DNA of 63,926 nucleotides, counting the filler, from Olpidium bornovanus S191 (lineage: Eukaryota; Fungi; Olpidiomycota), in assembly GCA_017911155.1 (NCBI GenBank). It is 28 parts of 28 records of this genome, joined end to end, with 100 filler letters (N's around TTAATTAATTAA, not from the genome) between each part and the next. Parts side by side here need not be neighbours in the genome. Positions count along the whole stretch, not along the records: positions 1,765 to 6,089 come from JAEFCI010007289.1; positions 6,190 to 7,475 come from JAEFCI010009193.1; positions 7,576 to 10,988 come from JAEFCI010010840.1; positions 11,089 to 13,449 come from JAEFCI010003478.1; positions 13,550 to 14,852 come from JAEFCI010010832.1; positions 14,953 to 17,073 come from JAEFCI010004699.1; positions 17,174 to 20,094 come from JAEFCI010010922.1; positions 20,195 to 21,768 come from JAEFCI010000661.1; 20 more parts are not named here. One strand, 5' to 3'. Within the stretch, counting starts at the first letter, position 1, and each line of letters starts with the position of its first letter. Under the pieces are notes generated by a model, which did no database searches, was not told the DNA's origin, and saw only the letters and a program-made list of their open reading frames with translations. Positions 1,765 through 63,926 of the stretch are shown here, one piece after another. Position numbers and translations under genes: made by a program.

Positions 1765-1814
1765 CCGTGGACCAGACAAAACAGGGGCTTGTGGAGAGTG
1801 TTTGACTCGTTGCG

Positions 1815-2585
1815 ACAGGATGTTGTATCCCGTCACGACGTCCGGGTCCAGCTCCGCTATCAGGTCGAAGAACGCCTTGATCATGCCCAGCTCGTTCGAG
1901 TACGGCATAAACGTGGTGCCACTCACGGTCACGTCTGGCGATCTCACGCACATGCAAATGTTTGTCGTGACGCCCTTTTCTTTGTGCACGTCGCAGATCA
2001 TGTACACTTCCGCCGAGGACCTGTAAGGGTCGGGGAACGCGGACTTCTCGTGGCTCTTGCACTCGATATCGAAACACATCACGGAAGGTTCCGGGATCGT
2101 GTCGTCTTCCAGGGCCGTCGCGGAATTGACGACAAACTCCTTCCCTTTGCTCGAGATCTTAAACACAGGTTCCGACAGTTCGAACTCCGTCCACGTTCCG
2201 AGTTTCAATCCTGAGCGCTCGAGATACTTGTCCCTGGGGGGATGCTGGATTCGTAAACGACGAACCTGTTCTTCACCTTCGCGCACATCTCCAGGAGCCT
2301 CTCCTCGCTGCGGTGCCGGACCTCAAAACACTGCTTCTCCGCGAGACCTCTCATGGTTCTCATGTAGACGGGTCCGGAGACGCTGGCCCCACCGAAAGCT
2401 TCCTTCACGGCAGGGGTGCGCGCGACCCGGTTCACCGGATATCCGCCGACGGGAGAAATGATCACGAAAGGAACAAACCTCGGGTCCCTGAGGACGACCC
2501 TCTCCCCCTCTTCCGAAACGCACATCAGGAGGCCCCCCCCGAATGCCGACCGCGTCCACCTGTCCGTTGTGGCATTCCCTGGTTC
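1815..2585 (-). pseudogene. polB: Virus-type family B DNA polymerase fragment (N-terminal domain plus 3'-5' exonuclease motifs I and II), frameshifted and truncated
   Basis: The end of ORF 2205..3476 reads LLMCVSEEGERVVLRDPRFVPFVII...VYESSIPP, matching the PolB N-terminal pattern lFg.teeG.sV...F.PYf and YEs.I. After a frameshift in a poly-C run near 2235 it continues RDKYLERSGLKLGTW...MCFDIECKSHEKSAFPDP (Exo I) and SNELGMIKAFFDLIAELDPDVVTGYNIL (Exo II). Similarity stops right after GYNIL. Intronless and compact, unlike a fungal Pol delta/alpha/epsilon. Confidence 0.85.
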
Positions 2586-4351
2586 AATGGTGGCTCGCAA
2601 ATTAGGCGCGCAAATGTTTCCAAACACTTCCTGCAAGCCACTTTTGCTTGCGGCCTGACGGCTGCTTTCCGGGAGGCGAATCTCGGCCGCGCAACCGCAA
2701 ACGCCGAGGGCTTCGAGAGACAGCAGCATCCCGTGCCAGGCGTCGAATGGGGACTTCATCTGTGGGAGGCCGCTATGCGGGATTCGGTTGTAAAGGTAGG
2801 TTGCAGCCACCAGGGCTTCACCCCAAAACGTGTCTGGGGCAGCGTGTTGCAGGAGAAGGGTGCGCATCCGCTCGCCAAGAGTACGATGCAAGCGCTCAGC
2901 CATCTCGTTCTGGTGAAGCGAGTCGTGAACCGTGACCGTGTGGCAATTGCCGCGCGAGGCGAGGTAGTCAAGCCAGACTGCAGTAGGGTACTCGCTGCGC
3001 CGTCCGATTGCAGACAGCGAATCTGCATGTTGCCGTCGCGTTCGACACGCGCAGTGAATTCCCAAATGCATTGGATTTGCGTAAAGACGAAAAGCGTGAA
3101 CGTAGCGCGTTGCGTCGTCGAGGAAGGTTATCGCGTACCGTGCTCCACTAAGCGACGGCGTGGGCAGTGTCATCAGGTTGGAATGTATCTTTTCTAACAG
3201 CACCATGGCGGAATCGCCATCCCGCGTGCGGGAAACGTGGCTCCGGCCATCTTCGCGCGCGGGCAGACGTCGCAACCGAAAGTGCAAAAGCGTGTTCGAA
3301 GAGGTCGAAATATTTCCGGACTCGCAAAGCTTCTTCACGATGGCTTGGCCGACGTGCCCGAGTCTTGCATGACGCACGTTGGCGTCGACGGTGAGTAATA
3401 CTGTTCCGGAGCACGCGTTGGGAACCTTGTTCGTCCAGGCTCCCTGCTGCCGCCGGACTGTGAGGAGGTCGTACAAATGGTTCGCGCGGCAGGCCCCAAA
3501 CGCAAGGTCGTTTTCCCGCGCAGGCTCAGGGCACAGCTGCCATCTCCGCGAAAAGCAATGCTGTGAGACGGCCGACGGACAAGAGTTTTGCGGTTATTCC
3601 TGGCATGACGTAGATGTCATCCACATTTGTGTGCATGCCCGTGGTGAAGTAGATTTTTGCGCGGTGTCGTCTTTCCGCAGACTCGAAGTCGGGTCGAGGC
3701 AAGGGTAGCCGGCTTCGGTACCGCAGAGGGCACGGGACAAGCGAGGGATCGTTTGGACGCATCACTTCATTCACCCGCGACCGATTGGCTCGACGGGGCC
3801 AACCCAATGAGGTCGAGACCGTGATTGATAAGCCGAGCCACCACGGCGGCGAGCAATCCTACGGGCTGGTCCCCTCGCGGCGGCCGACACTGCCGGTGGA
3901 GTGACCGAAGGATAGAGAATTGAAGACGTTTGGGCCCGACGGCCGTCGATGCGCGCGGCGCACTGATTTTATTTCGTTTTGAAAACAGAGCGGGGACTTC
4001 GGAACGTGGACTTTTTCGGGTTCGCGCGTGTGGCTCCTATACACGGCCGGCGGGCGAAAATCGAAACCGAAAACAAATGTTTGTGTGTGTGCGGGGGCGG
4101 TCCTTCGGTCTACTGCGCGGACTGTTTTCCTTCCGCTCTTTCATCTCTTCAGCCGCCGCATTTCCCTCTATCCATCGATGGTGACCGCGCGCGGCGCGTC
4201 GATCCTCGCGCACGCGAAGGCCGTTTCATCTCCGACAGCAATTCGTTTAGAGAACGGCGTCGTTTCCGACTCGGATCTTCTTACGCGCGCTAGTGATGCT
4301 GCCCGTCAAGAGGTTGTCAGCGTGTCGTAATGAAATTCCTCTGATTCCCGT

Positions 4352-4364
4352 TGGGCTCATAACA
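4352..4364 (-). promoter_or_regulatory. Primer-binding site of the Copia GGTTATGAGCCC type (internal initiator tRNA-Met fragment primer)
   Basis: TGTTATGAGCCCA directly after the LTR-terminal CA. It differs by one base from the GGTTATGRGCCC site known from Copia-type elements primed by a cleaved tRNAiMet. Confidence 0.65.
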
Positions 4365-61400: not shown

Positions 61401-62660
61401 AGATACGCCAGCTGAAAATTAGACCCGAGCGACGATCAACATTCTTTGGAAAGACTGACGCCGGAAAGGGGGACGAGAGAGGGAAAAGGCGGTGGGTGGG
61501 AGGGCGGCGGAGAGGCGGGCGCGCGAAACGGAACCGGCTCAATCCGGTTCCGGAAATAGGCACAGTGGGGCCCTGGGGTTCGCTCGCACTGCAGGAAACG
61601 GACTTCCCGAACACAACCGGCTCACCTGACCGGACCGAAAAAACACCTTCGTCAGGCCGACCTGATAGTTGTCTTCGACGCTGATGACGCTCTTCAGGAT
61701 CGCCTGGCAAAGCAGTTTCGGGTCTGACGTCCACTGGCTGCTGTGGACGAGGAGGTAGTAACGATCGACAAACTCCGCGAAGGTCCACCGCGAGGGGTAC
61801 CCGGCGCAGGAGATGCGGATGGTCTCGAGAACTCCGCAGGCCCTCAGCTGGTTCAGGACAGTCGGCGCGCTGAAGCCCCAGGGCTCTTTGGTATCGTTGG
61901 GCTTGATGCAGCGGATGTAATGGACGTTCGTGCTTTTGATCCTGTCCATCAAAGATATGAGCGAAGACTTGAACACCAACCCCAGCGTCGGTTTCCTGCC
62001 CGCGGGCCGCTCGCCTGTTCCCGCTCGAAGGCGAGATCCTGTCGAGGCGGACGAAGGGGGCTGCGGCATAGATAATTGGGGGGGAGGGGGGAAAATAAAA
62101 AGAAAAGTGGAGAGGGAAAATTGGACGGGAGGGAGGGTTTGACCGGGGGGGATTCGCAATTAAAAAAAGCGGCTCATTCGGGTGCGCGGCCTGATGGCAC
62201 CTGCTCGCCGGCGGAAGTTCCCGAATCCTCACCGGTTCCTCATCGCCTCTGAGGACCTCTCTCACAAACCGAAAATCGCTCCCCTGTAACACGGCCATCA
62301 GCTCGTCGGGAACGGTGTCCTTGTTCTTGTCGATGAACCCTTCCGCCTCGTACGTGACCTCGCAGGCGTAGTGGCGGATGGTGAAGGCGGAGTTCGAGAA
62401 ACGCGGCTTGGCGAAGATGTTCTTGTGTTTCGGCGTATCAAACTGCCTGAAGAGCTTGTCCGCGACCCCCTGGTCCGAGCCCGACGGCAGCCGCGACTCC
62501 TCGTCGAGAAGCGGGAGGATGCCCAGCTTGCCCTCTATCATCTCGATCGTCGGCGTGTTGTCGCTGTAATTTATGAACCTCCACTGGATCTGTTCTTCGA
62601 CGTAAAGCTGCTGCTCCAGCTTGAAAACGTGCTCAGCAAACTTTCGGCGAGGGCCCGCGA
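58472..62660 (-). CDS. MYO2: Class V myosin (motor C-terminal half, IQ motifs, coiled coil, globular tail), multi-exon, partial
   Basis: LGILPLLDEESRLPSGSD, FAKPRFSNSAFTIRHYACEVTY, KPTLGLVFKSSL..HYIRCIKPN..VLNQLRACGVLETIRISCAGYPSRWTF..YQVGLTKVFFRSGQ; IQ repeats; SYALENKVFELTQSL; tail LFPAHLI, AFWLSNTRELY, IYHIWLQEIKKRL. Confidence 0.97.
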
Positions 62661-63209
62661 CCGGTCAAAAAAAAAAAAAAAAAAAAAAAAAAAAAAAANN
62701 NNNNNNNNNNNNNNNNNNNNNNNNNNNNNNNNNNNNNNNNNNTTAATTAATTAANNNNNNNNNNNNNNNNNNNNNNNNNNNNNNNNNNNNNNNNNNNNCC
62801 CGCGCCCGCCGACGCCGGGAGCGACACCGCCAGCGGAGAGACCAGCGTGAGCGACGGAGGCGGCGAGCACGGCAAGCACGGCAAGGAGAGAGAGGGAAGA
62901 GGGGAGGCCGACGGGGGACGGGGGGAACCGAGAGAGTTCATAACTTCCAATAGCAAAGCCTATGAATACCAAACAGTGGTGCAGCGGCCTCCAAGAGTGT
63001 TGTACTGCAACGAAAAACCAACAACGTGTGCTGTTCATTTGCGCTCATTTTTGCCTGGCGACCAGCGTCCATCGGCTACCTGGGTGAAGCCGCTGACAAC
63101 AAGTGAAACCAACCGCGCTCTTGCCTCATCCACTCTATTCTTGTAGAAGCAGTACTTTCTTTCCTATTTATCCGCCCATTCCCCCTGAGCCCGTAAGTTC
63201 GGAGTACAC

Positions 63210-63926
63210 TCCGCCGTTAACGGGGCCGGTTCCCACAGTCGACGGCAGGCGGGATTTACAACGATCCGCGGTTCGCATTCGAGACACGGTATCGCGAAAA
63301 ACGTCACGGCAGCAGTGGTCCGCTGCCCCGCTTATGACGAGCACAAACATAGATTTCGACTCCCGAGCTAGCCTCGCTGAAAGGCCGAAGGCCCCACGGA
63401 ACAAAAGAAAAAAGCAAGATTCGCGAACGTTGAAGGAATCAAGGAAAATGATTGAACTTGACAGCGGCCCGCTTCCCGCTCGAAAATAGCGCGAATCTCT
63501 TTCCAAACGTCTGTGTCCAAGCAGTCGATAACGTGCGATCCGATGTTCCTCACCGGATCGTACGATCTGACCAGTTACCTGTAGTACGGCCAGAAGGATA
63601 TCGAGTCGACGTCGATCTCCAGGGTGATCAACTCGGGAGAACGGACCACGAGAGCGAACTGCGTCGTGGTGATAGCGTCCGCGGGCTTTAATCAGCAAGA
63701 CGCCATCATCATGAACAGGGCTTCTGTTTTGCGGGGACTGTTCACGTCAACGAAGGTCAAAAAATACAAGACAACTTTTCACACGGGATCCGACGCGATC
63801 GTGCTCGGAGCCGTGTACGACGACTTGGACAGGGACGAGAACGGGTTTGTCAAACCGTTTCAAACCGTGAGGAAGGGGGACGTGCTGTTCGCGCTCCACA
63901 GTCACGACAGAATAAACCGGGTCCGG
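63210..63926 (+). pseudogene. rpb2: Virus-type DNA-directed RNA polymerase second-largest subunit fragment, disrupted, runs off the window
   Basis: LTAARFPLENSANL[fs at ~63500]FQTSVSKQSI..YL*YGQKDIEST..ANCVVVIASAGFNQQDAIIMNRASVLRGLF..DENGFVKPFQTVRKGDVLF aligns with the Rpb2 region NTYQSAMGKQAM..YYPQKPL..NAIVAI..GYNQEDSVIMN..IDRGLF..DDDGLI..V..EDVII but is far more diverged than any fungal Pol I/II/III subunit. Upstream RRQ..FET..HGIAKNV resembles the fork-loop region. In-frame TAG at ~63582. Confidence 0.85.

Follow-up and report, generated by a model that had tools for sequence, protein, structure and literature searches.

The window analysed here, a 63,926-base stretch from the assembly of the fungus Olpidium bornovanus S191, holds pieces of two polymerase genes of viral type, one for a DNA polymerase (PolB) and one for an RNA polymerase subunit (Rpb2), which raises the question of where these pieces come from and whether they record one infection or many. 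The window consists of 28 contigs of 1.1-4.3 kb each with 27 identical N44-12 nt-N44 spacers between them, and the span 1765-63926, to which both genes had been assigned together, corresponds to two separate contigs (contig 2 and contig 28) and to no single locus. We consider it probable that the two pieces, dead and truncated in the DNA of what is likely an early-diverging fungus, stem from a member of a compact polymerase lineage (fundsalphavirus / "P. patens virus"), and that the PolB piece was later duplicated as neutral DNA.

Two Damaged Polymerase Fragments

The PolB remnant lies on the minus strand of contig 2. Its exonuclease part (1813-2238) contains the Exo I and Exo II motifs, matches the Pfam family DNA_pol_B_exo1 (PF03104; E 2.2e-18, window 1765-2322) and is 42-45% identical to the relatives P0001-P0004, P0008 and P0009. 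An N-terminal part (2235-2537, minus strand) is found in another frame: in a tblastn search, residues 51-150 of P0008 aligned to 2537-2235 (33.7%) and residues 150-291 to 2238-1813, and the N-terminal part matched positions 20-120 of the family HMM (E 1.4e-6). The frame changes at a run of C near 2235-2240, and weaker similarity in further frames, judged by eye, possibly reaches up to ~2656. Since homology ends at 1813, this copy lacks the polymerase domain entirely; the 5′ third of the gene is kept and is cut after Exo II. The damage thus comprises one frameshift or more and the loss of the 3′ end.

The Rpb2 remnant (63471-63926, plus strand, contig 28) covers the region of hybrid-binding domain 6 (RNA_pol_Rpb2_6, PF00562; E 5.4e-11). 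A tblastn search with P0096 extended the match over 63471-63923 (53.5% over 155 aa, E 9e-48), and the fragment corresponds to approximately residues 557-711 of a 985-aa relative. It is ~150 codons long, starts abruptly ~555 codons into the gene, carries one in-frame TAG (63582-63584) and leaves the contig at its end. The sequence in front of it (62799-63470) has no Pfam match and no match to open reading frames (ORFs) of related viral loci. Both the PolB and the Rpb2 matches are far above chance level, and neither fragment is able to encode a working polymerase.

As the initial annotation had stated, both genes are real and of viral type, lie on unlinked contigs joined here by spacers, have no introns within the matches and are of similar moderate GC (0.55-0.61 across the PolB parts and 0.54 for Rpb2, like host genes). 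The similar decay that it described holds loosely: both are damaged, PolB by a frameshift and 3′ truncation and Rpb2 by a stop codon and 5′ truncation. GC at third codon positions (GC3) is 0.79 in the exonuclease part, 0.61 in the N-terminal part and 0.74 in Rpb2 (0.68-0.90 in host genes), and neither fragment has lost CpG (observed/expected 1.1-1.5). A host-like GC3 of 0.74-0.79 in the exonuclease part and Rpb2, together with the retained CpG, makes it probable that the donor was GC-rich and that the decay is fairly recent.

The PolB remnant is joined directly, on its upstream side and in the same orientation, by a Ty1/copia-like remnant (2657-3400, minus strand). The latter has a GAG-pre-integrase match (PF13976, E 3.6e-4) that stays under the cut-off and an integrase core recognized by eye, with no rve match at E<=0.1 and no reverse transcriptase after it. 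The junction near 2656 is spanned by contigs of two sequencing runs, X1 (2549-3023) and X2 (2549-3096), with 0 differences, and other run contigs diverge from the window at 2656. Since the junction is bridged in both runs and a spliced gene lies on the same contig, contig 2 can be taken as nuclear and non-chimeric. The copia remnant next to PolB agrees with the proposed scatter of viral genes among transposons; no transposon was identified beside the Rpb2 remnant. Coverage of the copia-PolB stretch in putative RNA-type runs ends near 4000-4080 and hints at read-through transcription, the run contigs showing neither strand nor level. No run contigs covered the Rpb2 contig in any of four runs, which carries no weight on its expression.

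Both Fragments Point to One Compact Polymerase Lineage

The closest PolB relatives (four of 411 candidates passed) are unnamed metagenomic proteins of 826-840 aa with 41-44% identity. A profile of PolB relatives retrieved 13 compact proteins first (424-1791 bits), the other 79 of 92 matches scoring <=350 bits. These compact relatives are 807-884 aa long, with one of 752 aa, a size that fits the longest DNAP spans of 2.3-2.5 kb in the lists of Gong 2020 (PMC7017919). For Rpb2, P0096-P0098 (960-985 aa) were the sole three of 87 matches at E<=1e-10, P0096 having a library-wide E of 8.6e-32; a word-index search with the Rpb2 piece gave none of 148 candidates. Solved cellular subunits matched the piece weakly (best E 1.2e-7; fungal Rpb2 chains, E 4e-5 to 3e-4).

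When IMG/VR was searched with the Rpb2 family, the top match was a 17-kb metagenomic contig, L097, which carries both families. Its Rpb2 scored 801 bits, as compared to 629 for the next of 92 ORF matches, and this score is independent evidence, since the L097 Rpb2 is absent from the profile. The genes of L097 are long open frames throughout, in the order flap nuclease, PolB (849 aa), DUF5757, Rpb5, a 113-aa ORF, uracil-DNA glycosylase (UDG), TFIIS, Rpb1-N, Rpb2 (966 aa) and Rpb1-C, the two Rpb1 halves being 660 and 392 aa long. As can be seen, this order, including the split Rpb1, is that printed for the "Physcomitrella virus" (POL, FLAP, U10, RPB5, UDG, TFIIS, RP1n, RPB2, RP1c) in the supplement of Gong 2020, where this virus is nested in fungal fundsalphaviruses (PMC7017919). 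The GC content of L097 is 35%. Linkage of the two families is also indicated by P0015 (PolB) and P0141 (Rpb2), which both list one 27,881-bp contig; the longest contigs of the family's 14 PolB clusters are 4.0-38.7 kb, with 38.7 kb for P0011 and 28.4 kb for P0012, and the contig of P0096 is 17.6 kb long.

In other scans, single fragments, P0001 and P0011 retrieved no close locus from IMG/VR, a metagenome scan gave one distant locus (22% identity), a GTDB scan gave one locus of 533 bits, below the compact family, and a further IMG/VR scan gave at least 80 loci, with a top score of 604 bits among the matches listed.

Phylogenetic trees were built for Rpb2 from 115 rows (profile alignment, FastTree) and from 39 of these (MAFFT, IQ-TREE quick), and for PolB from 67 rows (FastTree) and 37 of these (IQ-TREE quick). 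The Rpb2 fragment paired with P0096 (98-99) within an 8-row clade (SH-aLRT 100) that also includes two proteins from chytrid genomes, P0114 and P0154, and that was joined to L097 at 97-98. These are Lobulomyces angularis KAJ3393376.1 and Gaertneriomyces sp. JEL0708 KAJ3177359.1, sister to the Rpb2 subclade of the window, and neither genus is among the 14 species listed in Gong 2020 (PMC7017919). The PolB fragment grouped with P0001-P0011 (8 rows, SH-aLRT 100), and FastTree joined this subclade to the L097 group at 99. The published lineage is placed next to Pithovirus, Marseilleviridae and Iridoviridae; here FastTree grouped the family with L026, a locus of marseillevirus-type gene order, in a clade of 36 rows (100) that IQ-TREE did not recover, and no Pithovirus row was identified. 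A grouping of PolB with polymerase delta was rejected (AU test, p 9e-7), in agreement with the earlier assignment to viral rather than host polymerases. The two trees are congruent, each fragment falling in a subclade apart from that of L097. It had been proposed to check whether the PolB and Rpb2 trees point to the same clade; judged by these trees and by the relatives of both genes on L097, they do, and both hits point to one known lineage and not to cellular genes.

Several observations weigh against this assignment. The trees contain no named fundsalphavirus or moss sequence, and the fragments cover 16-17% of the columns in the alignments, for which reasons we infer lineage membership via L097 synteny. 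L097 is 33-35% identical to the window pieces; its PolB is identical to P0012 and is itself in the PolB profile, so that its score of 1139 bits is circular. Within the subclade of the window itself, PolB and Rpb2 were linked on none of the contigs retrieved. With IQ-TREE, the outgroup of the PolB tree (two archaeal-like rows) attaches inside the family, leaving its monophyly and a Pimascovirales position unconfirmed there. On the side of the host, gene content places the source as an opisthokont with fungal-looking genes. As for the PolB copies discussed below, the runs are guessed to be RNA, an omega of 0.5 stays compatible with the data (p 0.16), and the 38 differences analysed are pooled over several versions, with 14 table rows outside.

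Apparently Neutral Divergence of the PolB Copies

Part of contig 2 is contained in 13 of the 24 listed runs, four of which were examined on this contig. At 1886-1991, three PolB versions are present in X1 and in X2 and two in X4. The neighbouring host gene (4776-6089), which served as a single-version control, has one version, with 0 other letters in the listed run pieces. The PolB versions depart from the window at 1813, 1874, 2000, 2578 and 2656 and have single-base indels at five places (2031-2620). Out of 54 differences 40 were listed, of which 38 were classed, those at 2238 (the frame change) and 2545 (outside the aligned part) being dropped. There were 12 synonymous and 25 non-synonymous differences and one stop, with 9.7 synonymous expected (p 0.36); omega was 0.74 (0.36-1.62), and omega<=0.2 was rejected (p<1e-4). 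The differences look neutral and include a stop and indels, and the copies therefore are likely duplicates made after the death of the gene.

The initial annotation had expected many more viral genes in the assembly from two hits in 64 kb. Further PolB versions do exist in the runs; since the copies diverged neutrally, the hits cannot serve as independent evidence of many insertions. Viral fragments on two of 28 contigs correspond to an interval of 0.9-23.5%. The extra PolB copies likely arose when an already dead fragment was duplicated, not through many infections.

Alternative Origins

The copies could instead be repeated insertions of distinct, then-active elements of the same lineage (S2 of Maumus 2014, PMC4083422), with intact or episomal copies perhaps persisting in the fungus. 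In X1, a contig that departs from the window at 1813 goes on, judged by eye, in the PolB frame, and PolB can also be read farther downstream in another version; GC3 is well kept, PolB versions are covered in putative RNA-type runs, and omega<1 has been reported in moss (PMC4083422). However, the differences between versions, with a stop and several single-base indels among them, fit neutrality, and we regard repeated insertion as unlikely. It is less probable still that a giant virus with a capsid, belonging to another group such as Mycodnaviridae or the mirusviruses, gave rise to the fragments. The sister position of the Rpb2 subclade to two chytrid proteins, which are encoded on contigs of 75 and 106 kb, would agree with such a source, as would the presence of Mycodnaviridae in zoosporic fungi (PMC13533422) and the ESM Atlas look-alikes, which are generic viral PolB and Rpb2 clusters. 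Yet the best giant-virus matches in IMG/VR have 22-37% identity and, among the matches listed, score far below the compact family, L097 has the moss gene order and the split Rpb1, and Myers et al. describe the earlier fungal elements as distant from Mycodnaviridae (PMC13533422); the trees held no identifiable Mycodnaviridae or mirusvirus reference.

Fungi outside Dikarya host virus-like elements (VLEs) of the killer-plasmid type with RNA polymerase genes derived from Nucleocytoviricota (PMC13348850), and the fragments might be nuclear relics of such an element. The polymerases of VLEs are, however, protein-primed (PMC13348850), whereas PF03104/PF00136 is found in the window PolB and those closest to it, a finding that refutes this origin for PolB, and the Rpb2 relatives are full multi-domain proteins linked to a PolB of that type; a VLE source is thus hardly credible. 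Divergent cellular pseudogenes, contamination or assembly chimeras are barely more probable. The assembly is very fragmented and the best solved-structure matches are cellular, but these matches are weak (E 1e-7 to 3e-4), the AU test speaks against polymerase delta, and the copia-PolB junction is spanned in two runs on a contig with a spliced gene. Stops and frameshifts, finally, speak against a free replicating contaminant.

Host Setting and Other Features of the Window

Host-type genes in the window include a single-chain ATP citrate lyase, a class V myosin, a V-ATPase proteolipid, a DUF3336 protein and LTR-retrotransposon pieces. This gene content fits an intron-bearing opisthokont, likely a non-ascomycete fungus, with myosin V and the single-chain ATP citrate lyase as the fungal-looking genes. 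The lyase (46432-48669, minus strand) is one long frame and a good marker for host placement. On contig 2, the host gene at 4776-6089 (minus strand) has two spliced GT-AG introns (5137-5331 and 5928-6056), with joints in four of four and three of four runs, respectively. It is transcribed and has Cys/His-rich motifs and no significant Pfam family. Because of these two spliced introns, contig 2 is taken as eukaryotic nuclear DNA.

An intronless aldo-keto reductase (33603-34517, minus strand) has GC 0.69 and GC3 0.90, above the other host genes measured. Remnants of LTR retrotransposons are present on other contigs at 53803-54462 and 56497-57630 (gag; GAG-pre-integrase with rve). An ORF at 50035-50547 (plus strand) has no Pfam match and a coiled N-terminus that may resemble the expanded Crinkler-like families of early-diverging fungi. 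Pfam searches with 37 further window ORFs revealed no viral family, and no terminal or long repeats were found on contig 2 or contig 28. One tblastn match of 41 aa (43615-43737; E 4e-5, two of 104 rows) was discounted as likely due to chance.

The Donor Element and Its Relation to Known Systems

The donor would have been an element that itself encoded the genes for its replication and transcription (PolB, flap nuclease, Rpb2, split Rpb1, Rpb5, TFIIS and UDG, as on L097), replicated in a fungus using its own enzymes and lived in a GC-rich fungal host. Illegitimate repair or the help of a retrotransposon may have brought pieces of its DNA into the nucleus; these would then have been truncated, decayed and lost function, and the 5′ PolB piece would later have been copied together with neighbouring repeats.

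A giant virus had been proposed as the source. The viral type of both genes stands; the giant virus stays a proposal, since neither the 64-kb window (queried with ORFs of 175 loci, including a capsid and VLTF3) nor, by Pfam, the 14.3 kb of L097 and the 22 kb of L128, a 51.7-kb related locus, that were examined gave a match to capsid, A32 or VLTF3. No Rpb1 piece was found in the window either. L128 carries a 610-aa Rpb1 N-half, DUF5757, a helicase and a compact Rpb2. Near its polymerase genes lies a capsid-sized 476-aa ORF (L128:14208-15635), which matches solely mannose-binding lectins, through a B-lectin domain at its C-terminus, and whose N-terminal part is unmatched; it is possible cargo. 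As for the published relatives, the moss regions are described as devoid of capsid and packaging ATPase, a minimal or helper-dependent element being left open (Maumus 2014, PMC4083422), and among the fungal loci examined in supplementary Figure 2 of Gong 2020 none lists a capsid and many list chitin-binding domains, capsid and A32 matches being found elsewhere in fungal genomes (PMC7017919). Tentatively, the donor lineage might be, instead of a giant virus, a small replicon of ~15-50 kb that still exists in the cytoplasm of early fungi, has no capsid, descends from pithovirus-like viruses, retains its replication and transcription genes and carries glycan-binding cargo like killer plasmids; intact metagenomic members such as L097 would keep the moss order, and a GC-rich member would recently have been present in this fungus. 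We hold this to be possible and no more than that, because the contig sizes and the missing capsid are accounted for just as well if metagenomic contigs are short and the capsid is divergent.

Like fundsalphaviruses (PMC7017919), the window has decayed PolB pieces, dispersed and often multi-copy in that group, beside a retrotransposon, and its relatives have a compact PolB and linked Rpb2, Rpb5, UDG and split Rpb1; unlike them, its host is likely outside the 14 listed species, the donor appears to have been GC-rich, and two isolated fragments stand alone. The likeness rests on L097 synteny rather than on a tree with published fundsalphavirus sequences. The Physcomitrella patens regions (PMC4083422) share gene order and Rpb1 fission with L097, with no capsid or packaging ATPase seen in either. 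They form clusters of cassettes with up to 16 gene families and are methylated and silent, with omega<1, whereas the window has single fragments with no CpG loss, near-neutral divergence and coverage in putative RNA-type runs. Mycodnaviridae (Myers et al. 2026, PMC13533422) likewise bring Nucleocytoviricota-type genes into early-diverging fungi, but their major capsid protein, contigs of up to 350 kb and position near or basal to Imitervirales have no counterpart seen in the window. VLEs of yeasts and of fungi outside Dikarya (PMC13348850) resemble the proposed donor in being fungal, with transcription genes derived from Nucleocytoviricota and no particle seen; they differ in their protein-primed PolB, the lineage found here having a delta-like PolB with flap nuclease and UDG.

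The lineage itself is already described (Maumus 2014, PMC4083422; Gong 2020, PMC7017919), and what is added here is probably a host not recorded before, not a new system. In the library searched, the name fundsalphavirus occurred in the original paper alone, and neither later work describing the lineage as capsid-less nor a report of such elements in Olpidium was found; the assembly may feature in a wide screen of fungal assemblies (bioRxiv 2025.04.19.649669) or in the strain list of PMC13533422. The screen of PMC10827195 left out fungi.

The fragments themselves are inert and ordinary. They likely add a further fungal host to the lineage and tie two fossils to intact metagenomic relatives. 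L097:1-14277 is an intact candidate for an extant representative, a close cluster member of which has been assembled at 28.4 kb elsewhere. An intact L097 with the moss gene order makes the question raised by Maumus 2014 testable, namely whether the lineage is a full virus with missed structural genes or a minimal capsid-less element.

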